Shown here: one piece after another, positions 9,448 to 31,942 of the stretch
How positions within the stretch are numbered: position 1 is the stretch's first letter
Layout of the letters: every line of letters starts with the position of its first letter
Assembly (NCBI GenBank): GCA_964441745.1
Contig: CAYTYR010000013.1
Coordinates: forward strand, 1-64,000
Direction of reading: 5' to 3'
Length of the DNA stretch: 64,000 nt
Source: an uncultured Clostridia bacterium
GTDB lineage: Bacteria > CAYTYR01 > UBA6262
Position numbers and translations under genes: made by a program
The notes under the pieces: model-generated
The model's database searches: none
Told to the model about the DNA's origin: nothing
The model's input: the letters and a program-made list of their open reading frames with translations, nothing else

Positions 9448-9466
9448 ATGGTTCTTTTCATTTTTA

Positions 9467-10249: not shown

Positions 10250-10281
10250 TGCTTATCCACCTCCATGTCTATAAATGTGGC

Positions 10282-10965: not shown

Positions 10966-10995
10966 GTTTTTACCTACCCCCTCTTCCTTAAGTTT

Positions 10996-11607
10996 TTACT
11001 CAAACCTGATATCATCAAGATAAAAGGTCATGCCGCCTTCCGGCATATCTTCGCCTTTAGCCACCCAGAAAAAACCGCCGCTGATATATGTTAGGTCGGC
11101 CTCACTTACATTGATCTCATATTTTTTCCATTCCTTAGTAAGCTGAATTGGGCCCTCACTTACCTTGTCTGTATCGGCATATTTCCCGGTAATGCCGCCA
11201 ACCCCTGCTTCGGCAATTATCTCACCACCTTTTTCTCCCCGGGCCCAAAATATTAGTTTTTTAGCTCCGGTTAATTCATATCCGCCTTTTTTTGTACCCC
11301 AATTATTGGCCGGATTCTGCCAATAAACGCCGGACCAGCCGGCATTCTGCGCTCCCTTGGCATTATATTTCCACTGGATGCAAGTAGCGCCGCCATGTGG
11401 ATTTTCTTTCCAGAGATCATTTACTCTCAGGTCACCGTAATCACCCATCCAGCCGCTGGGGATATAATGATTATCACCTGATTTAGCGTCTGTATAGATC
11501 GGGAACATCTTAAAAGCGCCACTGGCCACTGCCACCCCAGCTAACATATATATCCCGCAGACCATTCCGATTATTGCCAGCAGAGCCAATTTTTTCTTTA
11601 ACATCAT
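10996..11607 (-). CDS. Secreted CBM-like protein, paralogue 1
   Basis: Signal peptide; HYIPSGWMGDY, WQNPANNWG and FYLDDIRFE motifs. Confidence 0.75.
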   Translation of the reverse strand: MMLKKKLALLAIIGMVCGIYMLAGVAVASGAFKMFPIYTDAKSGDNHYIPSGWMGDYGDLRVNDLWKENPHGGATCIQWKYNAKGAQNAGWSGVYWQNPANNWGTKKGGYELTGAKKLIFWARGEKGGEIIAEAGVGGITGKYADTDKVSEGPIQLTKEWKKYEINVSEADLTYISGGFFWVAKGEDMPEGGMTFYLDDIRFE

Positions 11608-11630
11608 CCTACCTCCTGATCCACAGTTAA

Positions 11631-12362
11631 TTAGAAAGTATAGCGATACGCTATGCCTAATTGATGCAATCCTTTAGCTTGCAGGTAAAATCCTCTTTCC
11701 GGCAGTCTTGATTCGTCTTCTTCCTCTTCCTCTTCTTCATACTCTTCTTCTTCTTCCTCAGCTGGTTGTTCCTCTTCTTCTTCAACCTCTTCTGCTATTT
11801 GTTTTTTCTGCTTCTTCACTGGTTTAATTGCTTCTTCCTCATCTTCCTCATCTATTGCTTCTTCCTCTTCCGCCTCTTCCTCTTCTATTTCCTCTTCAAC
11901 TTTCACTTTTTTCTTCTTCGGGCTCTTTTTAATTGTACTTTTCTTCTTGCTGGGCCCGCTATCGGCTGAGAAATAGGCGTCAATTACATTACCGACCCAG
12001 ATCGCCGCCGCGGCATAAATAAACATATTGGCTGAATCAACTTTACTGGAATAATCATCGTAAGCAGATCCAGTTCTCTGTTTTTCATAATCCTCATAGG
12101 CGCTGTCGGCGCTGGAATACATCATATAAGCTGTGCCCAGGGCAATTATTTCCGCCCCGGCAAAAATATAACCTTTGGTCGGCTGTTCATTAAAGAACTG
12201 CCCCCAGCCAGGCAGCATCAATGACCGCAAGGCAGCATTGCCCGGAGAAGGAGTATTAAAATTAGACTCTGCTTCCTGCGCCGAAACCGCTGAGATGGAC
12301 ATGAGCATAATTCCGGTCAAAGCTAATACCAAGATCTTTAGAACATACTTGCAGTTGAACAT
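11631..12362 (-). CDS. DUF5683-like membrane/exported protein with a long Glu/Lys-rich insert
   Basis: AALRSLMLPGWGQFFN...KG and IWVGNVIDAY motifs; acidic tract; C-terminal aromatic strand YRYTF. Confidence 0.65.
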   Translation of the reverse strand: MFNCKYVLKILVLALTGIMLMSISAVSAQEAESNFNTPSPGNAALRSLMLPGWGQFFNEQPTKGYIFAGAEIIALGTAYMMYSSADSAYEDYEKQRTGSAYDDYSSKVDSANMFIYAAAAIWVGNVIDAYFSADSGPSKKKSTIKKSPKKKKVKVEEEIEEEEAEEEEAIDEEDEEEAIKPVKKQKKQIAEEVEEEEEQPAEEEEEEYEEEEEEEDESRLPERGFYLQAKGLHQLGIAYRYTF

Positions 12363-18957: not shown

Positions 18958-20094
18958 TTAGCCTTTCACCGCGCCGGCGGTCAGGCCGGAAATAATATGT
19001 TTCTGCATCATTAAATAAACAATAATCACCGGTATAGCCGTAATGATGACTCCAGCCATCAAATAATTCCACTGGGTCTTATAGGTTCCCTGGAAAGCCA
19101 GTAACCCGGCCTGTATCGGCATCTTACTGCTGTCAGAGAAAACGATCACCGCAAAAAGGAATTCTTTCCAGACGCTTAAAGCCCCGAAAATACCGGTCAC
19201 CGCCAGGATCGGGCGGGAAAGCGGCAGGATAATGCGGAAATAGATTCCGAGCCGGCTGCAGCCGTCAATGCGTGCCGCATCTTCCAGGTCCACTGGAATC
19301 GCCTCAAAAAAAGAACGCATCAGGAAAATAGTATAAGGCAGGCCGCTGGCAATCTGCGGCAAAATATATCCAGTGCGTGTATCCAACAAATTAATATTGG
19401 TCAAGATCAATTCCAGCAGTTTTTTAGGCTCGCCAGGATTCTTGGAAACCACAAAAGCATAGCCAGCCCCCGCTGTTAACAGCACGCCCAAGGCCAGGTA
19501 CATCATCTTGCGGAAAGAACCGGCAGTCACGATCAGCAGGGAAGCGATAGCGATCAAGACCACAAATAGGTATATCGGAAAATTTTGTAATAATAGATAT
19601 ACAGTAATAAAGATCGTGGGTAAAGGCATGACCAGGCTGGCCAAGAATAGATAGAAAATAAACTCTTTGCCGGGGAAACGCAGACGGGCGAACGCATACG
19701 AAGCCATCGACGAGAAAAGCAGCATAAAGAACACTACTGTGAGCATGTAAAAGAAGCTATTCATGAAATATTTGCTGAAATTGCCCTGTTTCCAGGCTTC
19801 TTTATAATTTCCCCATTGGATCGGCGCTGGCGGGATCAGACTGCGCAAAAGACGTCCGGTGGATTTAAGACGATTAGTGATCTTAGCGCTGGTACTTACA
19901 GGCACATTGGCATCGGTTATGGTATTCTGCTCATCAACCTGGTCACTGATCTGGTAAATCCCCTCAAAGGTGCGCAAGGAAGTGGAGACACCCCAAAGCA
20001 CCGGAAAGATCACCCAGGCCGCAAAGACCAGCAGGACCAGCTGAAACACGACATTAGTAAATATTTTTTTAAATTTTCCCGTACTTTTCTTCAT
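18958..20094 (-). CDS. Carbohydrate ABC transporter permease (MalG-type) with insertions
   Basis: SYAFARLRFPG; EAA loop LEDAARIDG; QKHIISGLTAGAVKG. Confidence 0.92.
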   Translation of the reverse strand: MKKSTGKFKKIFTNVVFQLVLLVFAAWVIFPVLWGVSTSLRTFEGIYQISDQVDEQNTITDANVPVSTSAKITNRLKSTGRLLRSLIPPAPIQWGNYKEAWKQGNFSKYFMNSFFYMLTVVFFMLLFSSMASYAFARLRFPGKEFIFYLFLASLVMPLPTIFITVYLLLQNFPIYLFVVLIAIASLLIVTAGSFRKMMYLALGVLLTAGAGYAFVVSKNPGEPKKLLELILTNINLLDTRTGYILPQIASGLPYTIFLMRSFFEAIPVDLEDAARIDGCSRLGIYFRIILPLSRPILAVTGIFGALSVWKEFLFAVIVFSDSSKMPIQAGLLAFQGTYKTQWNYLMAGVIITAIPVIIVYLMMQKHIISGLTAGAVKG

Positions 20095-20179: not shown

Positions 20180-21067
20180 TTACCAATCCACCAGCCATTT
20201 TTTGATCTGCAATTGCAACAGTGAAATGATGAATAATATTACTCCTAATAATACGCCCAGGGTCGTCGCATAACCCCACATGCCGTTCTGGAAGGCTTGC
20301 ATATACATTTGGTTTACTGGCACTTCTGTCGCGCCGGCAGGTCCTCCGCCAGTCATGACATAGATCAAATCAAATTGCTGCATGGCCCCGAGGATGGTTA
20401 AAATTGACACGCTGACAATAATAGGTAATAACAACGGAAATGTGATTTTCCAGAATTCCTGGAAATTGTTAGCGCCGTCAATACGCGCCGCTTCATAAAT
20501 ATCCCTTTCAATCCCCTGCAAGGCAGCCAGGAACATGACAAACCCCCAACCGAAGCTGGCCCAGATATTAACCATAGCTACTGTCGGCAAGGCGGTTTGC
20601 CGCGTACCCAGCCAGGGCAAGGCCCAGCTATCTAATCCTATATTTTTCAGGAAAATATTCAAAATCCCCATATTTGGTTCCAGGATCCATTTCCAGAGGA
20701 AAGCAATGACTACAAAAGACAACATCGGGGGAATAAAGAAAACTACGCGGTAGAATTTGGCGCCCTTTAGCTCTTTATCTACGATCCAGGCGAGCAACAG
20801 GGCCAAACCATTTTGAACGGTAATACCCATCAAAGCCAGGAAAGCGGCATTTTTAATGGGTTTCCAGAAATCCGGTGACTGGAACAGGGCCTTTTTGTAA
20901 TTAGACAGGCCGACAAACTGCATTTCATTAATCCCGTCCCAGGAATAGAACGTGATCAGGAAATTCTTGATAAACGGATAGATGACGAAAACACCGAAAA
21001 AGATCAAGGCTGGCAAGACAAAAAACATATACATTATTTCCCGGCGTTTCCATGGACGTTTAAGCAT
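20180..21067 (-). CDS. Carbohydrate ABC transporter permease (MalF-type)
   Basis: FVGLSNY, YEAARIDGA and MTGGGP motifs; ATG at 21067 after GAGGT. Confidence 0.92.
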   Translation of the reverse strand: MLKRPWKRREIMYMFFVLPALIFFGVFVIYPFIKNFLITFYSWDGINEMQFVGLSNYKKALFQSPDFWKPIKNAAFLALMGITVQNGLALLLAWIVDKELKGAKFYRVVFFIPPMLSFVVIAFLWKWILEPNMGILNIFLKNIGLDSWALPWLGTRQTALPTVAMVNIWASFGWGFVMFLAALQGIERDIYEAARIDGANNFQEFWKITFPLLLPIIVSVSILTILGAMQQFDLIYVMTGGGPAGATEVPVNQMYMQAFQNGMWGYATTLGVLLGVILFIISLLQLQIKKWLVDW

Positions 21068-21084
21068 GCAAAACCTCAATGTAT

Positions 21085-21129
21085 CAGCGGACAGCGGACA
21101 GTTTTTAGCGTATAGCGTTTAGCGTATAG
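21085..21129. repeat. Family A heptamer arm downstream of the four-helix-bundle gene (contains its stop codon)
   Basis: CAGCGGA CAGCGGA CAGTTTT TAGCGTA TAGCGTT TAGCGTA TAG. Confidence 0.85.
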
Positions 21130-21475
21130 GATTGATCATTTTATAAAGCATCGAGCCGACTTCCTTACGCAACTGCTCTAACTCACTATACTCAGGTAAT
21201 TCTAAGTATTTTAAGTCCTTTGCTAATAATAATTGTGTTTCAAACTCTGCCAGCGAACTATAGGCAATACTTAAGAATTGTCGATATTCATTTCTATGTT
21301 GCCTGGCATAACCTTCAGCTATATTTGACGGGATAGATACCGCGGCCCTTCTTATTTGTGAAGTTAATCCGTAGAGTTCATCTTTAGGAAACCGCGAAGT
21401 CACTTTATATGTTTCCAAAGTTAGCTTATAAGATTTCTGCCAGACTATCAAGTCCCTGAAACTTGTCGTTTTCAT
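21119..21475 (-). CDS. Four-helix-bundle protein (23S rRNA IVP / bAvd-like family)
   Basis: FRDLIVWQKS, FPKDELYGLTSQIRRAAVSIPSNIAEG and FLSIAYSSLAE motifs. Confidence 0.93.
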   Translation of the reverse strand: MKTTSFRDLIVWQKSYKLTLETYKVTSRFPKDELYGLTSQIRRAAVSIPSNIAEGYARQHRNEYRQFLSIAYSSLAEFETQLLLAKDLKYLELPEYSELEQLRKEVGSMLYKMINPIR

Positions 21476-21480
21476 CCTTG

Positions 21481-21517
21481 GCTTTTCTATCCGCTATACG
21501 CTACCCGCTATACGCTA
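21481..21517. repeat. Family A heptamer arm upstream of the four-helix-bundle gene (inverted relative to 21085-21129)
   Basis: GCTTTTCTA TCCGCTA TACGCTA CCCGCTA TACGCTA. Confidence 0.85.
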
Positions 21518-21520
21518 TTT

Positions 21521-22810
21521 TTACTCTTCGTATCTCTTACGGATGCGCTCATATTCTTCATCCAGGAACTTGCAAACTTGTTCCGGGGTTTTTTCATTTA
21601 AAATAATAGATTGGATCTCCACATTGACTTTGCTGAGGATCTCGCCCCACAGCGGCGGATTCTGGAACCGGCCATAATAAAGACTGCTCATCCACGGGAC
21701 GAATTTGGCCAATTTAGCGCCGGCCTTCATCTCTTTGCGCGCCGTCAGGTTTACCGGTATATTCTGGCTGGTTTCAGCGTACATTAACTGGGGAACCTTG
21801 CTGGTCAGGAACTTGACAAATTTAACCGCTGCTTCCTTGTTTTTACCATTAGCATTAACGGCAATAGCTGCCCCCGGCCCGCCAGGCAATAAGCACTGGT
21901 TAGCGGCATCAGCCGGCTGGGGAGGATAAAAAACGTCAAAATCCTGGAATTTTGGCGCAGTCTGTTTCCACACGCCGATCTCCCAGGATCCAAACCAGAA
22001 CATTCCCACTTTATTCTGCGGGAAAATATCTTCGCCATTGATCCCGCCGGTGATTCCCCGCATATACATTTTGGCATCGCGCATATCCGCGAAGATCTTA
22101 AAGCTCTTCACCACCCGGGGATCACTAAACTTGACCCGGCCAAAGGTCAAATCGGTAAATCCTTTCGTGCCTAAATAGGCAAAAGCGTAATTCATCCAGA
22201 AAGTATGGTTTTCCCATTGCTGGCCATAAAAATTAGCCACAAAGGGATCAATCCCGGCTGCTCTCAATTTACTGCCGGCAGCGATAAAATCAGTCCAGGT
22301 TTTAGGGACAGCTTTGATCCCTGCTTTTTCAAACAATTTAGTATTATAAAAAATAGCCATGCAATTGGCATCCACCGGCAGACCGTATAAACCGGCTTTT
22401 TTCACGCCATACACCGGCAGGTCTTCAGCCGTAAAGGTAAAACCACGCAGGTAGTTCTCAGGGATGGAGCTTTTCCATTCCTGATCCAGATATGGGGTCA
22501 GATCCAGGAAATGGCCGCCGCGGACATAGGCGGCATAATTAGTAATATTCAAGGTAATCGTCACCAGGTCAGGCAAGGCCTTGCCGCGGGTGGCGGCGCT
22601 CAATCTCCGGTCATAAGCTTCCGGAGGCCCATAATTCTGCACATCTACCTGGATCCCGGTCTGCTTTTCAAAATCGATCGCGATCTTTTTTAAAACCGCG
22701 TCCCGGTCAGTAAAATAATGCCAATAAACCAGTTTGACCGGTTCAGCAAAAAGCGCTGAAACAGACATTACCAGACTTAAAAGCGCGATCAGCCCTGCAA
22801 GTTTTTTCAT
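21521..22810 (-). CDS. Sugar ABC transporter extracellular solute-binding protein (family 1)
   Basis: Signal peptide; LVYWHY, LPDL, LYGLP...AIFYNTKLFEKAG, PKTW and GMFWFGSW motifs. Confidence 0.9.
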   Translation of the reverse strand: MKKLAGLIALLSLVMSVSALFAEPVKLVYWHYFTDRDAVLKKIAIDFEKQTGIQVDVQNYGPPEAYDRRLSAATRGKALPDLVTITLNITNYAAYVRGGHFLDLTPYLDQEWKSSIPENYLRGFTFTAEDLPVYGVKKAGLYGLPVDANCMAIFYNTKLFEKAGIKAVPKTWTDFIAAGSKLRAAGIDPFVANFYGQQWENHTFWMNYAFAYLGTKGFTDLTFGRVKFSDPRVVKSFKIFADMRDAKMYMRGITGGINGEDIFPQNKVGMFWFGSWEIGVWKQTAPKFQDFDVFYPPQPADAANQCLLPGGPGAAIAVNANGKNKEAAVKFVKFLTSKVPQLMYAETSQNIPVNLTARKEMKAGAKLAKFVPWMSSLYYGRFQNPPLWGEILSKVNVEIQSIILNEKTPEQVCKFLDEEYERIRKRYEE

Positions 22811-22877
22811 GATATTATCTCCTTTAATATCAACCTGTCATTCCCTGATGGGTTGCTGGTCCTTAAAATATTAGCTG

Positions 22878-22912
22878 AAAAAAAAGGAGAAGCGATTTAT
22901 TCGCTTCTCCTT
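22878..22912 (-). terminator. Intrinsic terminator after the CBM11-like gene
   Basis: Stem AAGGAGAAGCGA/TCGCTTCTCCTT running into T8 on the minus strand. Confidence 0.8.
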
Positions 22913-22917
22913 ATATG

Positions 22918-23559
22918 CTATTTTGTCTTTGTTGTTAATTCAACCTTATCAAAACTCCACTCACCCTCGTTCTTGGGGCGCGGCTCAAACTGATAAGTCA
23001 TGATCGGAAAATCAAGAGTCTTATTTTTTGCCGCGTTATTAGGCTGCCAGTCAGTTCTTACTTCAAACGATTTGAAAGGGATGATCACCTGTTTCCAGAC
23101 ATCGCTGTCATCTTTCACCAAGTACCGGAAATACTCTTTTTTAGAGTCAATAATATCCAGCGCCAGCTGTTTTCCGGAGTTAGTGCCTTTCATCCAGAAA
23201 CTGAACGCATTATATTTATCCCATTTTATATCCTGGGGTCTTACCTTCCAGGCCCCAGCGCCTTTGACATCTATATTATAGCCCCTGGCTATCCAGATCC
23301 AGCCGCCAGGCATGGCAAAAAACACTACTTTGAGAGACTGCTTGCCCTCCACTTTATCAGCATCATCGGCATATACTTCCACTGAAGAACCGCCGCCTGA
23401 GCCATAATCAACGTTACCGCTCATTGAGCCGGAGGTAATCCCAGCCGGAATGATCTCACCCTCAAAACCATCCAGCAACAGCGAATCTGCCGCGAAACTA
23501 TTAACTGCACCAAGACTGAGCATTAACATTATTACTAAGCTTGCCAACAACTTATGCAT
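22918..23559 (-). CDS. Secreted CBM11-like carbohydrate-binding protein
   Basis: Signal peptide; LLLDGFEG, WDKYNAFSFWMKG, WKQVIIPFKSF..R.DWQP and LDFPI motifs. Confidence 0.75.
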   Translation of the reverse strand: MHKLLASLVIMLMLSLGAVNSFAADSLLLDGFEGEIIPAGITSGSMSGNVDYGSGGGSSVEVYADDADKVEGKQSLKVVFFAMPGGWIWIARGYNIDVKGAGAWKVRPQDIKWDKYNAFSFWMKGTNSGKQLALDIIDSKKEYFRYLVKDDSDVWKQVIIPFKSFEVRTDWQPNNAAKNKTLDFPIMTYQFEPRPKNEGEWSFDKVELTTKTK

Positions 23560-23712
23560 ACTTTCCTCCTGTCCTGATTTTAATCATTGCCAAAATCAAA
23601 TATACTTCCTGATCCTCTTAATAGTTTAGACTGCTTAAACGATTAAAAGTTCCCAAACTATTTTTAACTTTAGTAATGATTAAATTTCAAAGAACTTTTC
23701 TTTTAAATTACA

Positions 23713-23744
23713 GGGTCTTTCCCCAGAAACCTGGGGAAAGACCC
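23713..23744. terminator. Perfect 14-bp hairpin (terminator of the TonB receptor gene or a 5-prime leader stem)
   Basis: GGGTCTTTCCCCAG-AAAC-CTGGGGAAAGACCC; no strong U tract. Confidence 0.55.
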
Positions 23745-23759
23745 CGCTTAACTTACTTA

Positions 23760-23788
23760 ATAATACACTAAATCTTTTACTTTGTCAA
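23760..23788 (-). promoter_or_regulatory. Promoter
   Basis: TTGACA-N17-TATTAT. Confidence 0.6.
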
Positions 23789-23792
23789 GCAA

Positions 23793-25973
23793 TTACCAGA
23801 GGTAGCTGACCTTAGCTTCGAAATACTGGGGATTAACCTGTTGCCAGTGTCCCGGGTCCATCGAACTGCTGCTGCCATAAACGGCATTGGTCAGGTTCTT
23901 ACCAAGAACGGTCAGGTTCAGGTTCTTTATCCCAACATTTCTAGCTGTGGCTGACAGATCAAGTTCGCCGCCGGTGGACCAAGAATATCCGGACCAACCA
24001 GCTTCATTCGCGTCGTTGCTGCCACGGTTCTGCATCTTCGCGTGGATCTTGTAGATACCAGATACACTGTAATTCTCAGTGATATCATAGTACGCGCCAG
24101 CAGACATATTCCATCTCGGCACAGCAGTTTTATTGAAGTCTGCATCGGTTTCTGTATCGATCACGCCTGATCCGCTTAACAGGTTAGCCGGAGCATTGGT
24201 GATGCGGTTCTTCAGCAACTGGCTGCCGGAAACAAATCCGCCGAAGTTTGACCAGTCGTAGGAAATATTTGCTTCAATACCGCGTACCTGGTGATCGCCT
24301 ACATTGTAGAAACCACGGAGCTGACCAAGGGAAGCATCAACTGCCGGCCAGCTGGTACCTGTGTACACAAAGTTAGCAAAGTCATACAGGATTTCCTGAT
24401 AATAGCTGGCCAGGACTTTCATGTTCTTTACCGGCCGCATATCAACCACGAATTCTGTGGACTCAGCAGTGGTGCACTTCTGGGTACCTCTTAAGGCGAT
24501 GTTGGTCTGTTCAGAGTATCTTTCGAAAGTATTCAACCGGGTAAAGCCCTGTTGGTAGATGCCTTTCAAGAAGAGGTTCTCTATCGGGCTGTACACAACG
24601 GCTGCTTTCGGGAAGAATTTGTGCATCTTTTCTCTGGCATCGCGGAACTGGTTTCCAGGATTGAATTCGCCGACATAACGTCCGCCGCCAGTGATGCTGA
24701 GGTTGTCCAGCAATTGGTACTTAGCATCGAGATAACCTTCAGCCGCGGCAATGTCATTGCCCATTTCGGTAAAGGTGGGCAAAAATTCCGGTGGATCATA
24801 CTGAAAAGCAGAACCTGGGACATTGGGATCCCAATTTCTAGTCTCCGGGTTCCAGGTAACTGACGCGCCTGATCCCTGCGCTGACCATACGCCAACCTGG
24901 GCACCGAGCACGACGCTCAGTTCTTCAGTCGGGTTCATCAAGACGTTGGTATCAAGTTCCCATCTCTTCTCAGTCTTCATTTCATAAGAATCGGTAGGAT
25001 CAGTTGCTTTTAGATGGAACACATCATACATCTGGTAGAAATTATTGAACCTGAGGGTGGTGGTCCAGTCCGTGTTTTTCCAAAATTCAGGCTTTTTGAC
25101 AATAATGTTGACATCGTCAGCATAATTTTCAATGCCCTTTACACGATTAGAATCTGCGTCGTTTACATACTCACGGGTAACTCTTTCTTCCAAACGACGA
25201 TAAGCGAGGGTGAAATCCTTATAGGTCATGTTCGCGAATATCTGGTAATCAGGCAGAGGATTGGTCCAAGCATGGGCATCCATCGCTCTAAAACCGTATC
25301 CACCCCATTCTTCCACGAATCTCTTCGCACCTTTATAATAGGCGGTGTTCACTAACAATTGATAAGAAAGGTCATCACTCGGCTTTTGCGCCATATTCAG
25401 GTTGTAACGAGCCATACCATATTTACCGACTACTACACTGGTATTTACGCCCGTAAACTGCGCCGCACCTTTATGCACGATATTGATGGTGCCTTCCGTG
25501 CCTTGGCCGCCCCACACTGAAGTGTTGGGCCCCTTCACGATTTCGATTCTCTCGACATCGTCAAAAGAGTTCGGCCAGTTGTTTTCGCCCAGGCCCAAGA
25601 AGGTAGGCATCAGCATGCCGTCATACAGGAACAATACCTTGTCATTGGCATAACCAGATACGCCTCTCAGCACCAAGACTTCATCGGCTCCCTTAAATGT
25701 ATGCCAACCACCTTCGATAACCTCAAAAAGGTCATTGACGTTCCTGATGGCATATCTTTCAAGGAACTTCCCGGAAAGGACAGTTACGTTAGCAGCTGCT
25801 TCGTACGTTTTTTCTGTACGTTTGGTAACACCGCTGACCATATCTTCACCGAAGAGGGCCAACTCGGTTACAGCTGCTTCTTCCGCCATTACTGGCACAA
25901 CTAAACTGATCATGATAGCTAAAATAAATAAAGGACGAACTAAATTTTTTAACGCTTTATGCAATTCCATCAT
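23793..25973 (-). CDS. TonB-dependent receptor
   Basis: Plug motifs AANVTVL, LRG, VLFLYDG and VERIEIVKGP..SVWG..GTINIV; C-terminal KNLTN...VSYLW. Confidence 0.88.
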   Translation of the reverse strand: MMELHKALKNLVRPLFILAIMISLVVPVMAEEAAVTELALFGEDMVSGVTKRTEKTYEAAANVTVLSGKFLERYAIRNVNDLFEVIEGGWHTFKGADEVLVLRGVSGYANDKVLFLYDGMLMPTFLGLGENNWPNSFDDVERIEIVKGPNTSVWGGQGTEGTINIVHKGAAQFTGVNTSVVVGKYGMARYNLNMAQKPSDDLSYQLLVNTAYYKGAKRFVEEWGGYGFRAMDAHAWTNPLPDYQIFANMTYKDFTLAYRRLEERVTREYVNDADSNRVKGIENYADDVNIIVKKPEFWKNTDWTTTLRFNNFYQMYDVFHLKATDPTDSYEMKTEKRWELDTNVLMNPTEELSVVLGAQVGVWSAQGSGASVTWNPETRNWDPNVPGSAFQYDPPEFLPTFTEMGNDIAAAEGYLDAKYQLLDNLSITGGGRYVGEFNPGNQFRDAREKMHKFFPKAAVVYSPIENLFLKGIYQQGFTRLNTFERYSEQTNIALRGTQKCTTAESTEFVVDMRPVKNMKVLASYYQEILYDFANFVYTGTSWPAVDASLGQLRGFYNVGDHQVRGIEANISYDWSNFGGFVSGSQLLKNRITNAPANLLSGSGVIDTETDADFNKTAVPRWNMSAGAYYDITENYSVSGIYKIHAKMQNRGSNDANEAGWSGYSWSTGGELDLSATARNVGIKNLNLTVLGKNLTNAVYGSSSSMDPGHWQQVNPQYFEAKVSYLW

Positions 25974-26094
25974 TTACACCCCTTTCTAAATTTGATTTTC
26001 GGCAAAACTGTTTATGTTCAGCAGCTCACCTCCTTCTGTTATGTTAAATCCGTCTCTTCCTATATATAATAAGAGATTATTTTTAGGCTATTTC

Positions 26095-26123
26095 ATTATA
26101 GCACTATCAAAAATTCTTGTAAA
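26095..26123 (-). promoter_or_regulatory. Promoter of the TonB receptor gene
   Basis: TTTACA-N17-TATAAT with extended TG. Confidence 0.65.
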
Positions 26124-26144
26124 GCAAAAAATTATTAAAAACGA

Positions 26145-28217
26145 TTAAGACAGCTTAAATTTGCTGGCTGAATCCTTCAGGCTCTCCGCGATCTCTTTCA
26201 GGTTTTCGATCGAAGTGGAAATCTCCTCAAAAGTGGCGACTTGTTCTTCGCTCGAAGCGCTGGCTTCCTCAGCGCTGGCCGCTGTTTCCTCAGAGCTAGC
26301 GGCTATATCCTCGATCTGCCCGGCAATATTCTTGGCGGCCTGGCTGATATCCTTAAAGCTCTTGCCGGCATCAGTGGTGACATTCGCTGATTCACCGACA
26401 TCTTTGGCCACTATTTCTACGGCTGTGACAGCTTTATTAGTTTCTGTTTGCACCTCGTTGATAAGCCGCGCGATCTCGCTCGCGCTTTGGGCCGAGCCTT
26501 CAGCTAATTTCCTGACTTCATCCGCGACCACGGCAAAACCGCGGCCAGCCTCCCCGGCCCTGGCTGCTTCAATCGCGGCATTCAGGGAAAGCAGGTTGGT
26601 CTGATCCGCTACCTTAGTTATATAATTAATGATCTCACCGATCTGCATGGAACGCTTGCCCAAGTTTTTGATCAACTCCGCAGATTGATAAGCGCTCTCC
26701 TTGGAATGAGACACTTTGGCAATGACCCCGCTGATATTCTCATCACCGGTTTCAGCGGTCTTAGCCGCTTTTTGCGCTACAGTGGCTACGGTCTGCGTAG
26801 TATCAGATATCTTGGTAATGGATACGGATATCTGGCTGACATTGGAAGCCATCTGCGAGATAGCTTCGCTGGAAGTCCGGGACAAGGAAGCCATTTCATT
26901 GGCCCGGGAATGGATCTGGTTGGAAGATTCCTGTATTTGCGAGATCAGGTCACGCAATCCGGTGATCATGGAGGAAAGCGCGTTGCCGAATAAGTCCTTG
27001 GTGGAACGAGGCTTAATAGCGGTGGTCAAATTGCCGCGGGATATGTCCTGGGTAATATTGGCCATTTCCTGCAGATATTCCACAATTTGCTTAAAGGAAG
27101 TGCCTAAGACGTCAGATTGCGACCGCACCCTGATACTGCCGCTGATGTTGCCTTGTGAAATTTCCTGGGCTAACTGGCTCATTTCCTGGAAATAGCTGAC
27201 CATTTCCTTAAAGGCCACTCCTAAGATATCCTTGTCGCTGCGCGGATGAATATTGCCGCTAATATTACCTTGGGAGATATTCTGGGCCAGCTCGGCCATT
27301 TCCTGCAAATAGGTCACCATTTCTTTAAAAGCATTACCTAACACATCCCGCTCTGACCGCGGCGGGATATCTGTGCTCAGTTCACCCTGGGCGACCAAAT
27401 TGGCATTTTTCGCCATCTCCTCAATATACCTGACCATCTGGTTGAAAGCCCGTCCCAGGTCGCCGATCTCATCATTGGATTTGATCTGCAATTCTTCTTC
27501 TATTTCACCCTGGGAAATCTTCTGGATCTTATAGATCACTTGTTTTAATGGATTTAAGGTATAACGAGAGGCCATAATAATAAGGGCTATGCCAATTAAT
27601 ATTATAATTAAGGTAAAGAGCATTATCAGATATTTTATTTTGCGCAACTCATCGCTAATGCCAGTGGTATTCATGGTGATCTGCACAACGCCGATAATTT
27701 CCTTCTTCACTTCCGCGGACCCGGATTTTTCAGACCGACCGGCGCCCAATCCCATCATGGATTCCAGATCCGACCCCACGCCAGAACCTGCCGACTGGGT
27801 CACCTTGCTGACCACGGGAACAGTAATAACAATAGTTTTGCTATCCGGTTTCTGGTAGGACACTTCCTTAGTTTCCAGGGCTTTTTTCTCAATGTCTGAT
27901 TCTACGGCCTGGTCGATCTTAGTTGACACGCTATGGGATAAGAACCGCCCATCCTTATTAATAATACTAGCCGTGGCCACATCTTTTTCTTTCATCGCGC
28001 TTTCGACAAAATTCCCCAAACTGGTCCGGTCTTCCGCCAGGATACTGAACTGGCAGTTATTGGCAATACCGTTAGCGATCGTTTCTCCTCTTTTTTCCAA
28101 GGCATTCAGCAATAATGTACTCTCGTGATTAATCAGGTACGTACTAAAAAATAAGGCAATCAGCACGATCAGCCCGGCGGTGAACATGATAAGCTTATTT
28201 TGTAGATTCAGTACCAC
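26145..28217 (-). CDS. Methyl-accepting chemotaxis protein with a periplasmic sensor domain and a poly-HAMP array
   Basis: Two TM helices; one HAMP plus four 39-aa repeats; hairpin tip [34 protein letters not shown]. Confidence 0.93.
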
Positions 28218-28283
28218 TTTTTTGTCTCCCTTTTTTAAAGTTAGTCTTCGCTTTGCTCAGTACTAACCGAAATTCCTACCCTA

Positions 28284-29228
28284 TTAATTATATGTTTCCA
28301 CTGCCCGTTTGGTCACATCAGAACTGATCTTAATGCCCAGAGCCCCGGCAGTCTTACTATTGATGGCCAGGTTCAAATTACGCGGATATGCCAGCGGCGG
28401 CAATTCTCCAGTTCCGCCCTTGGCTAATATATCACCGGCCATCGCCCCGGATTGCCGGCCGATATCTTCATAATCAAGCACCGGAGAGGCTATCGCTCCT
28501 ACTTTGACCAGGAAGGAAGCAAATCCGAAGACAGCGACACTGCCTTGCTGGCACTGGTTCATAATGAAGGGGATGGTATCTTTGGTCGCAACGGTGGGAT
28601 CCAGTATCAGCCAAAAAACCTGTATCTTGCCAACCATATCCTTGATGGCTTTGACCACATCCGGCGAAGCAGACACAGAAGTGGCCACAACTGATAAACC
28701 ATAATTACCGGCAACGCTTTTAGCTTCAGTGGCAATGGATTGGCTATAGGTAGGATCATAAATGATCCCAATGCTTTTGGCATTAGGAATGATTTCTTTG
28801 ATCGTCTCTAACGATTGTTTGACCGGAACATCGAGGGCCACGCCGGTGACATTAGCTTTAAGGACCTTTTGCTTGGCAGGACTAAGGACCATGGAAAAAA
28901 CAATAGGTTTATTGCTGACCTTTTCCGAAGCAGCTTTCACTGCTTCAGTGCCAATCGCGTAAATCAAATCAAAACTACCCAGGTTTCCAGGGATCCCAGC
29001 CAAATCAGAGTACGTTATTTTGAGATTACTGCCTTCGGCGTATCCCTTACTTCTCATCTCTTTCTTAAATCCCTCCAAAGCCATATTATACTGGGGCAGG
29101 TTCTGGCTCTTGATAATAATGATATTTTCAGCTAAAGAAAAAGATTGGAACAACAAGAGGATTAAAACAGAAAGGATGAACGGGGAAAAGATTTTTTTTA
29201 CCATTTGTTTTTTTGTCACCATCACCAT
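28284..29228 (-). CDS. ABC-type substrate-binding protein (ABC_sub_bind-like) with no adjacent permease
   Basis: Signal peptide; AIGTEA, PIVFSMVLSP, NVTGV, IGIIYDP, DYEDIGRQSG and LAINSKTA motifs. Confidence 0.8.
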   Translation of the reverse strand: MVMVTKKQMVKKIFSPFILSVLILLLFQSFSLAENIIIIKSQNLPQYNMALEGFKKEMRSKGYAEGSNLKITYSDLAGIPGNLGSFDLIYAIGTEAVKAASEKVSNKPIVFSMVLSPAKQKVLKANVTGVALDVPVKQSLETIKEIIPNAKSIGIIYDPTYSQSIATEAKSVAGNYGLSVVATSVSASPDVVKAIKDMVGKIQVFWLILDPTVATKDTIPFIMNQCQQGSVAVFGFASFLVKVGAIASPVLDYEDIGRQSGAMAGDILAKGGTGELPPLAYPRNLNLAINSKTAGALGIKISSDVTKRAVETYN

Positions 29229-29408
29229 ATTTTCTCTCTTATTTTATTTTATAGAGCTGCTTATGGCTCTCTCCTTGGCCAAGAATGCTAAAAAAAACCT
29301 TTTTGACTACACCCTAAAAAGAGTTTGTTTAACATTCTCCAGACAACAAAATATAGTGTGGTTCAAAAATTCTACACATTATGTTGTGTAATTCACTCTC
29401 CCGCAATT

Positions 29409-29437
29409 ATTGTATATAATATCAATATATTTGTCAA
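29409..29437 (-). promoter_or_regulatory. Promoter of the SBP-MCP operon
   Basis: TTGACA-N17-TACAAT. Confidence 0.65.
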
Positions 29438-29455
29438 CAAAAATATTTTAAAAAC

Positions 29456-29501
29456 GATTACACAGATTAGAAAAGATCCGCCTGAGGCGGACAGGGATTA
29501 C
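29456..29501. repeat. Family C arm plus CCTG-type palindrome, overlapping the MGMT 3-prime end
   Basis: Reverse complement GTAATC-CCTGTCCGCCTCAGGCGGA-TCTTTTCT-AATCTGTGTAATC is nearly identical to 20128-20174. Confidence 0.75.
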
Positions 29502-29796
29502 CTGACAAAATTATTTTTTGCTTCTTTTCGGTTGAAAGAAGCCTGATTTTCTGAGCAATGCCGCCGGCAAATCCGCCAATACTTCCGTCGCTGCAAATCA
29601 CCCGGTGACACGGTACCGACGGAGCAAAAGGATTTTTATGCAGGGCGTTCCCTACGGCGCGGCAGGCACGGGGGTGACCGATCTTTTTTGCGATCCAGGC
29701 ATAGGACCTGGTCTCACCCCTGGGGATAGTTTTACACGCCGCGTAAACCTTTTTTTCAAACTCCGTTATTTTTCTTTTTTTTATTTTATTCTTCAT
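29467..29796 (-). CDS. Single-domain O6-methylguanine-DNA methyltransferase (MGMT family)
   Basis: IPRGETRSY, RAVGNA and active-site PCHRV motifs. Confidence 0.9.
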   Translation of the reverse strand: MKNKIKKRKITEFEKKVYAACKTIPRGETRSYAWIAKKIGHPRACRAVGNALHKNPFAPSVPCHRVICSDGSIGGFAGGIAQKIRLLSTEKKQKIILSGNPCPPQADLF

Positions 29797-29828
29797 CTTC
29801 TTTTACCACTTACCACTCTACCACTGTT

Positions 29829-30623
29829 TTATTGCAGCTTCCTATACTTCGGCCCCTTGGATATATCAGAAAGAAATATATTACCTTGTTCATCAGTATA
29901 AATAAAAAGCGGTTTTTGTATGCTGATCGGACGGTTGGCATAATATTGCCAGTAGGTCAGCACAGCAATAATATATCTTTTTGTTTCGCGGAACGGCGGT
30001 ATCCCGTTATACTTTTTCACTGCGTCAGGACCGGCATTATAAGCGGCTAACGCTAATTTGATATCGCCAAAATTACGCAATTGTTCTGCCAAGTAGCGGG
30101 TTCCCCCTTCGATATTCTGACGCGGACTGTAAATATCAAAGACGCCAAGACATTCCGCTGTCTTTGGCATTAATTGCATTAATCCTTTGGCCCCTTTATG
30201 GGAAACACAGTACTGGTCAAAATCACTTTCCGCTTTGATGACTGCTTTGATCAGGGCCGGTTCAAGGTTGTGCTTTTTAGCGAAAAGCGCGATCAAATCG
30301 TCGAAATTGACAATATCCCGGGGAGAGATCTTTTTCTTAGCTTTAGCGGTTGGCTTTTTTTGCTCCCGCGGAGAAACAGTTCGGCCTGAGGGGACATAAT
30401 CCTTGATCTCATTCTGGTAGAAATTAAGCTCTCCGCCTTTGACCCTGAAAATATAGCTATCGCTATTTTTTTCCACTAAAACCCCATAAAAAGTGTTGCC
30501 ATTCTTCAACATGACCTTGTATTCCCGCCCATCGGCGTAGAGAGGTGAAGGAGTGGTAAAGTGGTAAAGTGGTAACGCAAAAACCACGCTTATTAACAAA
30601 CGCGTTTTCCATTTAAGCTTCAT
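29829..30623 (-). CDS. Lytic transglycosylase (SLT domain)
   Basis: AVIKAES, GLMQLMP and ALAAYNAG motifs. Confidence 0.92.
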   Translation of the reverse strand: MKLKWKTRLLISVVFALPLYHFTTPSPLYADGREYKVMLKNGNTFYGVLVEKNSDSYIFRVKGGELNFYQNEIKDYVPSGRTVSPREQKKPTAKAKKKISPRDIVNFDDLIALFAKKHNLEPALIKAVIKAESDFDQYCVSHKGAKGLMQLMPKTAECLGVFDIYSPRQNIEGGTRYLAEQLRNFGDIKLALAAYNAGPDAVKKYNGIPPFRETKRYIIAVLTYWQYYANRPISIQKPLFIYTDEQGNIFLSDISKGPKYRKLQ

Positions 30624-30626
30624 TAC

Positions 30627-31922
30627 TCATCCTTTCTCTTTCAGTGTCTTACTGCGTAACAAGCGGTGATAGGAAATGGCAAAACGGTGCGCTTCATCGC
30701 GAATCTGCCTGACCAACTGTAAAGCCGGTGAACGCCGGTCCAGAGCCAGCGGTTCAGGTTGTCCCGGTAAAAATATTTTTTCTTCACGCTTGGCAATACT
30801 GGCCAGGGGAATTTGTTTATCCAGTTCCCGTAATTCCCTTACCGCCTGGGATAATTGCCCTTTACCGCCGTCGATCAGGATCAGGTCAGGTTTTTTTTCA
30901 TGACGCTCGATCAAGCCGCGATAGCGGCGGCGTAAAACTTCTCCTAACATAGCATAGTCATCTATGCCTGAAATGCTTTTTATCCGGAACCTTCGGTACT
31001 CCTGTGCAGCCGGCTGCCCGTCAAGAAAAGTCACCATTGAACCAACAGCCAGCTTGCCGCTGATATTGGAAATATCAAAAGCTTCGATGCGCCGGGGCAA
31101 GCGCGGTAATCCCAATTCTTTTTGCAGCAGCGGCAGCATTTGCTGCTGGGGCAGCTCCGGCAAATGGCTCTTTAATAAAGCGGCCGGGTCAACTTGCCGG
31201 AAATTGATACGTGCCAGTATCTCTTCAATAAATCGTTTTTCCTGGTATACTCGTTGTGCTTGTTCATATTCCATGGTCTGGCTATGAGCAGCTAATTGCC
31301 GGTCCAAATGCTGAAGTAATTGCTGGGGCCGGTTCCGCAGGAACAAGTCTACTTCACGGAGAATATCCAGGTACTTTTCCCGGCAGATCTGCGCGGTACA
31401 AGGCGCTGAACACCGTTTTAAATGGTAATAAAAACATGCTTTAGCCGGCAATTTCACCTGTTTACAGCAGCGCAGGGGAAAATATTTCCGCACCGCCCTT
31501 AAGATCTGGCGTAAATGGCTCCCATCCGGATATGGCCCGTAATATTTAGCGCCATCTTTACGGACGATCCTGGTCACCAACAAGCGCGGCCATTGCTCCT
31601 TCATGGTGATTTTTAAGTATGGGTAACTTTTATCATCACGGTACATGACATTGTAGCGGGGACGATAGCGCTTGATCAACTCAAATTCTAAAAGTAACGC
31701 GGCTTTTTCTGATCTGGTCGGTATATAGTCAATAGCCGCGATATGAGAGACCAGGGCTTGTACCTTAGGGGAAAAACCCCGTCCCTGGAAATAACTGCTG
31801 ACCCTTTTTTTTAAGCTGGCGGCTTTGCCCACATAAATAATTTCACCGCGGCGGTTCTTCATCAGGTACACACCGCTCTGGTCGGGCAGGCGCTTAATTT
31901 TTTCCAGCAAAGGCTCAGTCAT
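30627..31922 (-). CDS. uvrC: Excinuclease UvrC, short form lacking the C-terminal HhH domain
   Basis: GVY..IYVGKA GIY-YIG domain; Cys-rich segment; FDISN, DGGKGQ and RDEAHRFA motifs. Confidence 0.88.
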   Translation of the reverse strand: MTEPLLEKIKRLPDQSGVYLMKNRRGEIIYVGKAASLKKRVSSYFQGRGFSPKVQALVSHIAAIDYIPTRSEKAALLLEFELIKRYRPRYNVMYRDDKSYPYLKITMKEQWPRLLVTRIVRKDGAKYYGPYPDGSHLRQILRAVRKYFPLRCCKQVKLPAKACFYYHLKRCSAPCTAQICREKYLDILREVDLFLRNRPQQLLQHLDRQLAAHSQTMEYEQAQRVYQEKRFIEEILARINFRQVDPAALLKSHLPELPQQQMLPLLQKELGLPRLPRRIEAFDISNISGKLAVGSMVTFLDGQPAAQEYRRFRIKSISGIDDYAMLGEVLRRRYRGLIERHEKKPDLILIDGGKGQLSQAVRELRELDKQIPLASIAKREEKIFLPGQPEPLALDRRSPALQLVRQIRDEAHRFAISYHRLLRSKTLKEKG

Positions 31923-31942
31923 AAAGATCCAACTTCGGGTTT

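Follow-up and report, generated by a model that had tools for sequence, protein, structure and literature searches.

Why does a gene for a small four-helix-bundle protein stand at the centre of a heptamer palindrome inside an ABC-transporter operon, when the same palindrome occurs elsewhere without the gene? A sequence-only reading of the 64-kb stretch of DNA analysed here (the window) had placed the gene within the operon between inverted TAGCGNN arms, a description whose coordinates and strings proved exact on checking, and had taken the arrangement for a candidate new system. The gene belongs to PF05635, which is among the larger bacterial families without known function and is known mainly from the ORFs of rRNA intervening sequences (IVSs) and from its kinship with the retroelement protein Avd. 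We read the locus as a selfish palindromic cassette of the IVS type, located not in an rRNA gene but in an mRNA operon and accompanied by gene-less derivatives, and we put the probability of this reading at roughly 0.55.

A PF05635 gene bracketed by heptamer arms

Read along the transcript, the filled site and its neighbours are as follows.

21521 to 22810, minus strand: upstream host gene, a carbohydrate-type ABC-transporter substrate-binding protein
21487 to 21517, minus strand: upstream (5') arm, about 4.5 TAGCGNN units on the transcribed strand (sequence reading; base-paired to the downstream arm in the predicted fold)
21476 to 21486, minus strand: A-rich spacer and purine-rich ribosome-binding-like stretch right before the ATG (sequence reading)
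21119 to 21475, minus strand: PF05635 / TIGR02436 four-helix-bundle gene, 118 aa (profile search)
21104 to 21129, minus strand: downstream (3') arm of inverted heptamers, into which the ORF's end extends (sequence, repeat finder and RNA fold)
21085 to 21101, minus strand: extra variant heptamer run, CAGCGGA, 2.4 copies on the plus strand, outside the downstream arm
20180 to 21079 and 18958 to 20094, minus strand: downstream host genes, two ABC-transporter permeases

Tandem Repeats Finder assigns the upstream arm (21487-21517) a period of 7 and 4.6 copies, and upstream of the substrate-binding-protein gene lie a promoter-like site (22841-22814) and a terminator-like site (22912-22884). The filled site reads as 17 nt at 21113-21129, then 351 nt (21130-21480), then 15 nt at 21481-21495. 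The last 11 nt of the ORF, which encode P-I-R and the stop, fall within the downstream arm, whose first heptamers supply the final three codons and the stop. Because these codons sit in the arm, and because the P-I-R terminus is near-invariant across 38 homologues from several phyla (alignment A1, 67-74% identity), gene and arms, judged from their sequences, behave as one unit. The sole close relative, L001, whose protein is 93% identical, is likewise filled at the orthologous site and lacks the variant CAGCGGA run (21085-21101) there. Orthologous loci had been proposed as places where filled, empty and absent states would vary; at the ABC operon the comparison could be made, and with L001, the only close relative, also filled, no gain or loss is seen at the window's own filled site.

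The protein itself matches PF05635 (E 2.3e-41, 140.7 bits against a cut-off of 33.8, residues 7-111), TIGR02436 (E 3.7e-39, 133.3 bits, cut-off 24) and NF008911 (145.4 bits, cut-off 137), as well as a solved relative, 2GSC (XCC0516 of Xanthomonas; E 2.9e-21). A profile built from alignment A1 also matches the solved 2RLD, and the PDB entries 2GSC and 2RLD contain five chains each. Two Avd models match below their cut-offs, NF033474 at E 4.5e-10 (39.8 bits, cut-off 80) and PF22296 at E 3.2e-8 (34.5 bits, cut-off 40). A full HMMER scan of the PF05635 family (E up to 0.001) gives 24,323 clusters at 50% identity; in 118 longer homologues the domain is joined to very mixed partners, and the gene is present in 27 plasmid records, mostly cyanobacterial; cyanobacterial plasmids include genes labelled 'S23 ribosomal protein'.

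Other copies of the repeat in the window

The other sites in the window are these.

59372 to 59448, minus strand: empty hairpin between rpmI and rplT; junctions identical to the filled site, 17 + 15 nt
31943 to 32014, minus strand: empty hairpin between murJ and uvrC, with the end of the murJ frame in its upstream arm
38002 to 38084, minus strand: empty hairpin between tlyA and leuS; loop longer and more diverged
34916 to 34950, minus strand: single arm, TAGCGNN on the transcribed strand, then A-rich leader and holA start codon
55809 to 55845, minus strand: single arm, TAGCGNN on the transcribed strand, then A-rich leader and pheS start codon

The 17-nt and 15-nt junction strings recur at 59384-59400 and 59406-59420, 5 nt apart, bearing out to the base the earlier claim of identical junctions at 59384-59420, and the empty hairpin at 59372-59448 matches the filled site without the 351 nt. 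The further empty copies (31943, 38002) and single arms (about 34920, and 55809) that the sequence-only reading had listed are all present. The A-rich spacer that it saw on the transcribed strand throughout is found at every one of the six sites but 38002-38084, where the spacer is A/G-rich and longer. Before the holA and pheS starts, arm and A-rich leader are arranged as they are before the ATG of the four-helix gene. The pattern TAGCGNNTAGCG matches 16 times in the window against 0.09 expected (0 of 100 shuffles reach 16), and a three-unit pattern with one mismatch allowed matches 22 times against 0.14 expected, always within the six sites. An extra two-unit match at 3219, inside an ORF, is probably due to chance. 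Each of the six sites stands between co-directional minus-strand genes: substrate-binding protein and permease, uvrC and murJ, lptE and holA, leuS and tlyA, rlmB and pheS, rpmI and rplT.

No transposase, integrase or reverse transcriptase was matched among the window's 57 ORFs of at least 70 aa (NCBIfam profiles were scanned on all 57, Pfam on 16 of the 57), in agreement with the earlier statement that none lies nearby, and none of the 57 is a Y1 (IS200/IS605-like) RAYT transposase flanked by repeats. The three empty hairpins have MITE-like traits, namely terminal inverted repeats, a length of 72-83 nt, no coding content and several copies; a transposase-encoding parent is absent from the window, and the filled copy encodes the PF05635 protein only. 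In the hairpin junctions that were read, whose ends the tandem units blur and for which there is no unoccupied target to compare, no direct duplication is seen. At the gathering threshold the hairpins match no Rfam family, and E values up to 1 add three chance hits far below threshold. An Rfam scan of the window finds no rRNA gene; the filled site is the spacer between the ABC substrate-binding and permease genes.

Predicted RNA folds

Folded as RNA, the empty hairpins have energies of -31 to -33 kcal/mol, with z from -4.9 to -5.9 and not one of 200 shuffles equally good. At the filled site the whole gene is enclosed by a stem of about 25 bp in which the arms pair (z -3.5; 0 of 100 shuffles); the single arms give a z of about 0 and no structure. 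The stems of the empty hairpins consist of 4-5-bp helices interrupted by 2x2 loops, and with such broken helices these hairpins may be poor substrates for RNase III. A role as intrinsic terminators was considered and rejected, because the stems are not trailed by a T-run: on the transcribed strand a run of A comes after the stem at 59372-59448, and not one of the 38 terminator-like sites between 20500 and 38500 matches the position of a hairpin or arm. The comparison of sense-strand G.U mismatches with the mirror A.C type, aimed at RNA-level versus DNA-level constraint, gave 109 against 113 in 71 arm pairs and is non-discriminating; since G.U does not exceed A.C, no RNA-only constraint can be detected on the transcribed strand.

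Bracketing across phyla

The genome scan yielded 582 relatives, of which the best 80 loci, from more than 20 phyla, were kept; of 84 tblastn hits, 80 had flanks of sufficient length for scoring. The score aligns the upstream flank with the reverse complement of the downstream flank; the threshold was at least 28, and 578 ORFs of 90-300 aa from the same loci served as controls. As the sequence-only reading had needed to suppose, four-helix genes elsewhere do carry arms: in these best 80 loci of the 582 relatives, 56 of 80 PF05635 genes reach the threshold against 12 of 578 control ORFs, while 24 of the 80 fall below it, and the medians are 33.5 and 16 (Mann-Whitney p 8e-41). On these alignments, bracketing by inverted repeats is general across phyla. 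A strict period-7 detector (15 of 21 matches, both flanks) had caught 27 of 81 cassettes, 17 of them with inverted consensus; it is blind to 8-nt units and degenerate arrays, and the flank-against-flank alignment with controls was therefore used instead.

The median arm, over 71 well-aligned arm pairs, is 35 nt long, with a unit period of 7 in 29 pairs, 8 in 13, 6 in one, 9 in one and unclear in 27. Within 140 nt of PF05635 genes the density of period-7 arrays is 0.87 per kb, as against 0.107 per kb elsewhere. The core letters of the units are 92.6% complementary and the spacer letters vary. At the two most variable phases complementarity is 61.6% against 44.6% under a register-aware null (sd 2.3; 0 of 500; 40 cassettes), and about 38% of the variable arm positions are unpaired; a simple slid-register control (41.7%) is biased, the aligner itself picking the register, and was redone as the register-aware permutation.

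Of 84 PF05635 genes, 49 have both neighbours co-directional and two have both opposite; the gaps are about 70 nt. In 11 of the 22 loci that have an arm array and another array, the latter matches the resident arm at six or more of the seven positions. The window's link between filled and empty sites is genuine, and it recurs at L015, in another phylum, where one filled and two empty hairpins with a heptamer unlike TAGCGNN lie in 18 kb. On the alpha and gamma plasmids of Nostoc PCC 7120, copies of the gene share a segment beside an ISL3 transposase remnant, and their arrays are not inverted.

Cassettes inside pglX

In two loci, L012 and L034, the whole cassette lies inside a BREX pglX gene whose frame stays open and is read through. 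Aligned with the solved PglX 8C45, the L034 protein falls into two blocks separated by about 156 aa, against 17 aa in the reference; the L012 pglX contains an additional 23-aa insert encoded by an empty hairpin, which L034 and 8C45 lack. Since the cassette interrupts pglX relative to 8C45, and since the hairpin is found in one of two pglX homologues, these cases are, at the level of protein alignment, direct evidence of insertion. In-frame insertion into coding sequence was seen in two of 84 cassettes; the window's own copies are intergenic.

Arms, protein tree and position

Two paralogues in one locus bear different arms (L006, L011), and sister pairs that span phyla share theirs (L012/L034, L021/L039). 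Mapped onto the protein tree, the arm label requires 22 changes, where the lowest of 500 shuffles needs 29, so the repeat unit, whose sequence varies with lineage, tracks the tree, and the co-variation of four-helix clades with the unit that had been put forward for checking is found. The tree (118 columns; 7 of 75 inner branches starred; 6 of 84 sequences omitted as short or interrupted) was used for these label-clustering counts only, because it is poorly resolved. Arms thus appear to follow the gene, not the host. In L002/L010 and L007/L009 the cassette occupies what is, judging by the flanks, apparently the same site, and because such orthologous positions appear stable, movement, if any, is slow.

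A proposed selfish cassette and its rivals

The element that we propose would be a unit of upstream tandem 7-nt array, short A-rich leader, PF05635 ORF and inverted array, with five or six conserved and two variable letters in each repeat and three to five repeats in each arm. It would be transcribed by read-through from the host operon, given that its neighbours are co-directional and leave almost no other spacer, and in the transcript the arms are predicted by folding to pair as a stem of about 25-35 bp enclosing the ORF, with a presumed functional role. In the rRNA homologues RNase III cuts this stem and frees the cassette RNA; by analogy, a cut in an operon transcript would simply separate the cistrons, so that insertion may cost the host little. 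The Avd-like protein may bind the tandem units, thereby protecting, processing or copying the element, and the empty hairpins would be gene-less derivatives of the cassette. Because cassettes and hairpins have been inserted at unrelated places (operon spacers, the pglX coding sequence and, from the literature, rRNA helices) and cross phyla with their arms intact, we regard them as selfish DNA, mobile now or in the past. As no recombinase is encoded in the cassette, the cutting and joining steps would have to come from host or unlinked enzymes; with neither a recombinase nor a target-site duplication identified, the data trace no route of movement. Overall, the PF05635 cassette is probably selfish and movable, while its mode of movement and the function of its protein are matters that we infer.

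One might instead see here an immobile host regulatory system, in which the protein is a trans-acting nucleic-acid-binding factor and the heptamers are its cis sites, punctuating operons for processing, stability or translation, with autoregulation and with arrays that change by slippage. Such a system would suit the two single arms, both of which carry TAGCGNN on the transcribed strand and are followed at once by an A-rich leader and a start codon, in parallel with the forward TAACTGA repeats described upstream of Beggiatoaceae starts (PMC4679880). It would also suit the location of all six window sites within housekeeping operons, the apparently stable orthologous positions (L001; L002/L010; L007/L009) and the complementarity of the core letters beside variable spacer letters. 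It sits poorly, however, with a cassette inside the pglX coding sequence and a hairpin in one of two homologous pglX genes, with further cassettes inside rRNA genes and between cas genes, with differently armed paralogues in a single locus and with arms kept across phyla; the Coxiella copy, moreover, appears dispensable and decaying in the account given in PMC4990558. The patterns of insertion and of arms are more in keeping with selfish DNA than with a designed regulon, and we consider the regulatory explanation unlikely.

Another account would make the hairpins an independent family of REP or MITE type, moved by an unlinked enzyme, with the four-helix gene as mere cargo of unrelated function. 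Empty sites in the window do outnumber filled ones by 3 to 1, with two single arms in addition, the cassette encodes no enzyme, many intergenic palindrome families are described as moved in trans (PMC10969869), and the Nostoc gene lies beside a transposase remnant common to both plasmids. Against this stand the arm that forms part of the coding sequence, with an end near-invariant in homologues from several phyla, and the unit sequence, which tracks the protein tree and differs between paralogues in one locus; the ratio of 56 in 80 family genes to 12 in 578 control ORFs, in turn, argues that ordinary genes are not captured by hairpins in this way. We hold the cargo account to be quite unlikely. 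Very improbable, in our view, is an orphan Avd of a diversity-generating retroelement, with the repeats as its remnants: Avd and PF05635 are taken to be homologous (PMC10053308) and NF033474 and PF22296 match weakly, but both matches fall under curated cut-offs, no reverse transcriptase is found among the 57 window ORFs, and the repeats take the form of tandem 7-nt units instead of a template/variable repeat pair.

The selfish IVS-type cassette can also be given a much wider form, which as a whole we find doubtful and offer tentatively. PF05635 proteins would then be sequence-specific partners of tandem 7-8-nt arrays, jointly forming a large, cross-phylum class of mobile cassettes without transposase; each paralogue would recognise its own unit, one ring subunit per unit; and the class would have spread into hairpin loops, spacers, rRNA helices and coding sequences, leaving gene-less hairpins and single arms behind.

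Implications

If bracketing by inverted arrays of tandem 7-8-nt units is the rule, and gene-less copies are spread through the same genomes, then rRNA IVSs, unexplained heptamers and the stray 'S23 ribosomal protein' genes that sit in operons and cas loci become one system. On the wider form just sketched, STRR of cyanobacteria, TAACTGA of Beggiatoaceae and GGGAATC of Xanthomonas would be footprints of that system, and the kinship with Avd would hint at copying via a nucleic-acid intermediate. Many homologue contigs are just 0.5-1.5 kb long, and the repeat arms would suggest why these genes break metagenome assemblies. For annotation there is a practical warning: peptides encoded by the repeats, and read-through fusions in pglX or other host genes, would stem from these elements.

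Comparison with known systems

Tandem heptamer arrays have been described in their own right: TAACTGA in Beggiatoaceae, cyanobacteria and Bacteroidetes, GGGAATC in Xanthomonas, with 70-75 convergent inverted pairs, and GGGGA(C/T)T and STRR in Nostoc and Calothrix (PMC4679880, PMC4692102). Translational control was proposed for the forward TAACTGA repeats upstream of Beggiatoaceae start codons (PMC4679880), and horizontal spread was suggested for the patchy cross-phylum distribution, with 'no mechanism evident' (PMC4679880, PMC4692102); term searches of the two papers turn up no mention of a linked gene. Like ours, these are intergenic tandem heptamers that often point to the next start codon, and their host groups overlap those rich in PF05635 (Xanthomonas with XCC0516; cyanobacterial plasmids), whereas their unit sequences are unlike TAGCGNN.

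The Correia/NEMIS MITEs of Neisseria and the REP palindromes are likewise short, multicopy intergenic palindromes co-transcribed with flanking genes. RNase III is described as cutting the inverted repeats of Correia elements in mRNAs (PMC10969869). MITEs, however, derive from transposase-encoding IS elements, have target-site duplications and are bounded by unique inverted repeats, whereas the only linked gene in the window encodes a 118-aa helical bundle, no duplication is seen at the junctions read, and the arms are built of tandem 7-8-nt units. Rickettsia palindromic elements lie in frame in protein genes and are translated with the host protein (PMC10969869), which recalls the L012 hairpin and the L012 and L034 cassettes read through by pglX; they differ in measuring about 150 bp, in being confined to Rickettsia, and in having neither tandem heptamers nor a gene of their own.

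Avd is a pentamer that binds reverse transcriptase and RNA. The window protein shares with it a homologous four-helix bundle and weak profile matches, and differs in falling below the Avd cut-offs and in having no reverse transcriptase among the window ORFs.

The closest relatives are the IVSs in 23S rRNA of Leptospira and Coxiella, after whose ORFs PF05635 is named. In Coxiella, three tandem heptamers of unit GACAGAT, with one more degenerate, lie upstream of the ORF and differ in copy number between strains, and a 28-bp stem is cleaved by RNase III in vitro, with RACE-mapped ends and a cut at the first repeat (PMC4990558, 2016). The same report regards rRNA IVSs as selfish and horizontally transferred, credits the mobile-element proposal for IVS and ORF to Ralph and McClelland 1993, judges the Coxiella ORF probably unexpressed and decaying, and describes short ORF-less IVSs (PMC4990558), which a preprint on CPR bacteria describes as well. 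We found no literature linking PF05635 genes in general to tandem-repeat arms, the Coxiella description covering one element. The differences are that the cassette of the window lies in a protein-coding operon spacer instead of an rRNA helix, that further operons of its genome contain several gene-less copies as well as single arms, that its unit is TAGCGNN instead of GACAGAT, and that RNase III cleavage is known for Coxiella, whereas for the window cassette a stem is predicted by folding. Shared features are a PF05635 ORF enclosed by terminal inverted repeats that pair as a long stem, tandem heptamers right in front of the ORF, in Coxiella as in our cassette with its roughly 4.5 units, and ORF-less short forms that parallel the window's empty hairpins. 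The sequence-only reading, which knew of no described mechanism and spoke of a new system, thus overstated the novelty of the locus: with PF05635 proteins already held between inverted repeats in the Coxiella and Leptospira IVSs, and with the Coxiella IVS as precedent, the architecture is not new in kind.

An inverted-repeat cassette and its gene-less copies

In the operon of a carbohydrate ABC transporter, the cassette at 21085-21517 separates the gene for the substrate-binding protein from the first permease gene, and re-reading the sequence found the description of gene, arms and junctions given by the sequence-only reading correct to the base. That reading had also noted copies without the gene, and the window indeed holds three empty hairpins (gene-less arm pairs) and two single arms.

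Features of the cassette and of its gene-less copies (arms, leader and variant run read directly from the sequence; copies from the window census)
21119-21475, minus strand: four-helix-bundle gene, 118-aa ORF (PF05635, E 2.3e-41; TIGR02436, E 3.7e-39)
21487-21517, transcribed (minus) strand: upstream arm, about 4.5 TAGCGNN units
between upstream arm and gene, minus strand: A-rich leader, 11 nt
21104-21129: downstream arm, inverted units
21085-21101: short run of variant heptamers past the downstream arm
21113-21129 and 21481-21495: junction strings of the filled site (17 nt and 15 nt), enclosing 351 nt
59384-59400 and 59406-59420: the same 17-nt and 15-nt strings 5 nt apart, empty hairpin between rpmI and rplT
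31943-32014: empty hairpin between murJ and uvrC
38002-38084: empty hairpin between tlyA and leuS
34916-34950: single arm between lptE and holA
55809-55845: single arm between rlmB and pheS

The gene runs into its own downstream arm: its last three codons (P-I-R) and its stop coincide with the initial heptamers of that arm as read on the transcribed strand. Across an alignment of 38 homologues (67-74% identity) this C-terminus is nearly invariant; the sources label some of these homologues Omnitrophota or Planctomycetota, and a few homologues carry C-terminal extensions resembling translated heptamers. Because the gene ends inside the arm and its end scarcely varies, arm and gene have travelled together through the history of the subfamily.

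The census is far from random: TAGCGNNTAGCG occurs 16 times in the window against 0.09 expected, and the three-unit pattern with one mismatch 22 times against 0.14, confined to the six sites. When aligned, the filled site minus its 351 nt equals the empty hairpins. The remaining five sites are likewise spacers of co-directional housekeeping genes, and the minus strand carries 55 of the 57 window ORFs of at least 70 aa. Profile scans of these 57 matched no transposase, integrase or reverse transcriptase, in agreement with the sequence-only reading. None of 38 terminator-like sites in 20500-38500 overlaps the hairpins or arms of that stretch, and Rfam holds no family for the hairpins. The murJ frame enters the upstream arm of its hairpin (31994-32014) and stops within it; in three consecutive 7-nt units, read on the transcribed strand, TAG falls once in each frame, so that an arm terminates translation from any incoming frame.

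Folded as RNA, the three empty hairpins reach -31 to -33 kcal/mol (z -4.9 to -5.9; 0 of 200 shuffles equally stable), with helices of 4-5 bp separated by 2x2 loops. At the filled site, base pairing between the arms (12 + 9 + 4 bp) closes around the entire gene (z -3.5), and the single arms show no structure. Across 40 cassettes, the two most variable unit phases are complementary in 61.6% of paired units, compared with 44.6% under a register-aware permutation null (sd 2.3; 0 of 500 permutations reach the observed value), and 38% of positions at these phases are unpaired. Arm pairs hold 109 sense-strand G.U mismatches and 113 of the mirror type, hence no G.U excess, and the data do not show a constraint acting on the transcript alone.

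Arms accompany the gene across bacteria

The arrangement is general across phyla. A genome-collection scan with the family alignment, which detected 582 relatives and from which the best 80 loci were kept (more than 20 phyla; 84 family genes with the window), found inverted runs of short tandem units bracketing nearly every family gene. The unit varies by lineage: TAGCGNN or CAGCGNN, TAGGGNN, TAGCCAN, CTGAGTNN, AGGTTCAA, AGGCACAA and others. When the 150 nt upstream were aligned with the reverse complement of the 150 nt downstream, the threshold score of 28 was reached by 56 of 80 scorable family genes (median 33.5) and by 12 of 578 controls (median 16; p 8e-41), the controls being ORFs of 90-300 aa taken from those loci. 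Among 71 well-aligned arm pairs (median arm length 35 nt), the period is 7 in 29, 8 in 13, 6 in one, 9 in one and unclear in 27. Period-7 arrays are about eightfold denser within 140 nt of family genes (0.87 per kb) than elsewhere in the loci (0.107). In 22 loci the detector picked up a further array besides the arm array, and in 11 of these the further array agreed with the arm unit at 6 or more of 7 positions, a match that by a hand estimate a random pair would reach about 2% of the time. In one Planctomycetota locus, 18 kb contain a filled TAGGGNN hairpin and two empty ones, an arrangement that mirrors the window with another unit.

Both neighbours are co-directional for 49 of the 84 family genes and both opposite for 2, at median gaps of 70 and 72 nt that barely exceed the arms, and we infer that the cassette is expressed by read-through from its host operon. 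Many homologues lie on contigs of just 0.5-1.5 kb, as would be seen if the repeats interrupt assembly.

The arms follow the gene and not the host. Paralogues a few kb apart carry different arms in two loci (L006 and L011), while the same unit is kept in cross-phylum sister pairs (L012 of Verrucomicrobiota with L034 of Nitrosomonas, and L021 with L039). In a tree of 78 proteins, which is poorly resolved, the arm label requires 22 changes, compared with at least 29 in 500 shuffles, and the phylum label 28, compared with at least 35 (53 rows). Since labels cluster through relatedness alone, the result shows co-inheritance of arm and gene, not co-evolution.

Insertion into coding sequence

The cassette has also entered coding sequence, and here insertion is seen directly. 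In L034 (9130-12393) and L012 (6891-9203), a long ORF encoding a BREX PglX/BrxX-type methyltransferase spans the entire cassette in another frame, reading through it as a G/S/D-rich insert of about 140 aa, with two overlapping genes as the result. Residues 46-273 and 430-533 of the L034 protein align with 68-285 and 303-407 of the solved PglX structure 8C45, placing about 156 residues where the reference has 17. A stop-free alternative sense frame occurs in these two of 84 cassettes only, the others having 1-14 stops; the host frame has therefore been held open by selection. Within the L012 pglX, an in-frame empty hairpin of the L012/L034 arm unit (8410-8485) encodes 23 residues missing from both L034 and 8C45. 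The gene-less hairpin is a presence/absence difference within homologous pglX genes. In L012, pglX is followed by a 1002-aa ORF (9200-12208) that weakly matches the reverse-transcriptase model RVT_1 (E 1.8e-7).

In 118 longer homologues the domain is fused to very mixed partners, among them methyltransferases, DnaE, an ABC permease, Cas6 and, in 15, the type IV pilin N-terminal methylation domain PF07963. Such a mixture is what one would expect if the cassette had inserted at scattered places and then been read through, and the recurrence of PF07963 suggests a favoured neighbourhood.

Stability of the sites

A single close relative, L001, whose protein is 93% identical, allowed the comparison at the ABC operon that the sequence-only reading had proposed, and the site is filled there too, with changed numbers of arm units. 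Several orthologous cassette positions appear stable in related loci, and together these observations count against recent mobility here. No target duplication was seen at the element junctions. The alpha and gamma plasmids of Nostoc sp. PCC 7120 (L081 and L082, each 2250-3150) both encode one and the same four-helix protein, beside the 3' end of a gene for an ISL3 transposase. CTCTGCC heptamers come after it, with a one-unit difference between the two plasmids, and these arms are not inverted.

Other features of the window

Three TTACCAC units and three reverse-complement units form an inverted pair (29803-29825 and 30552-30575, about 730 nt apart) around a lytic-transglycosylase gene, the upstream array lying within the part of the gene that codes for the signal peptide. 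The geometry is that of the cassette, but the repeats belong to a second, unrelated family and the enclosed gene is another one. Between xseB and xseA (42244-43636) sit a HepT/MntA toxin-antitoxin pair and an Mrr restriction endonuclease that is divided over two ORFs, Mrr_N and Mrr_cat; together they look like a small defence islet inserted in the exonuclease VII pair. A 6S RNA gene (51433-51588, minus strand; Rfam RF00013, 64 bits) directly precedes a gene for replication-associated recombination protein A (RarA-type AAA ATPase). Markers of type IX secretion also occur, namely a PorV-family protein and Por_Secre_tail domains. The RNase Y of the window is 98% identical to a protein labelled only 'MAG: bacterium', and its other matches, from mixed phyla, reach at most 67% identity.

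Discussion

Overall, we believe that the window holds a cassette of the intervening sequence (IVS) type that lies outside rRNA, along with gene-less derivatives of it, a reading to which we give a probability of roughly 0.55. By homology, RNase III would excise the cassette from the operon transcript. The protein, for its part, may bind the tandem units, a prediction drawn from their conserved core letters and variable spacers, the three to five units per arm, the five chains in each of two solved relatives, and kinship with the DGR accessory protein Avd. The sequence-only reading, a candidate new mobile cassette system, is partly supported: insertion into pglX and the empty-hairpin family speak for it, no recombinase was seen among the window ORFs, and the kind itself is known from IVS. 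The family, which takes its name from the ORF of 23S rRNA intervening sequences, comprises 24,323 clusters at 50% identity. Because it is so large, and heptamer repeats have so far had no explanation, the generalisation has real reach.

Parts of this picture have precedents. In the account of Warrier et al. (2016, PMC4990558), the Coxiella IVS is termed a selfish element, with three tandem heptamers and one degenerate copy upstream of its ORF, in strain-variable number; the 5' cut falls where the first repeat begins. In the authors' view the ORF is unexpressed and decaying, and they cite a 1993 proposal in which the IVS is a mobile element and its ORF has a role in mobility. Family genes are noted between cas genes (PMC3936711) and, in a preprint, in rRNA insertions of CPR bacteria. 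Heptamer arrays are described, with no associated gene, from intergenic regions of Beggiatoaceae, cyanobacteria and Bacteroidetes (PMC4679880), and, with 70-75 convergent pairs among them, from Xanthomonas and Nostoc (PMC4692102). Correia repeats undergo RNase III cleavage and Rickettsia palindromic elements lie in frame, as reviewed in PMC10969869. No statement of a general link between family genes and tandem-repeat arms turned up in full-text searches of largely open-access articles. Compared with the rRNA intervening sequences, the window cassette is IVS-like but sits in an operon, outside rRNA, and is accompanied by a family of empty hairpins.
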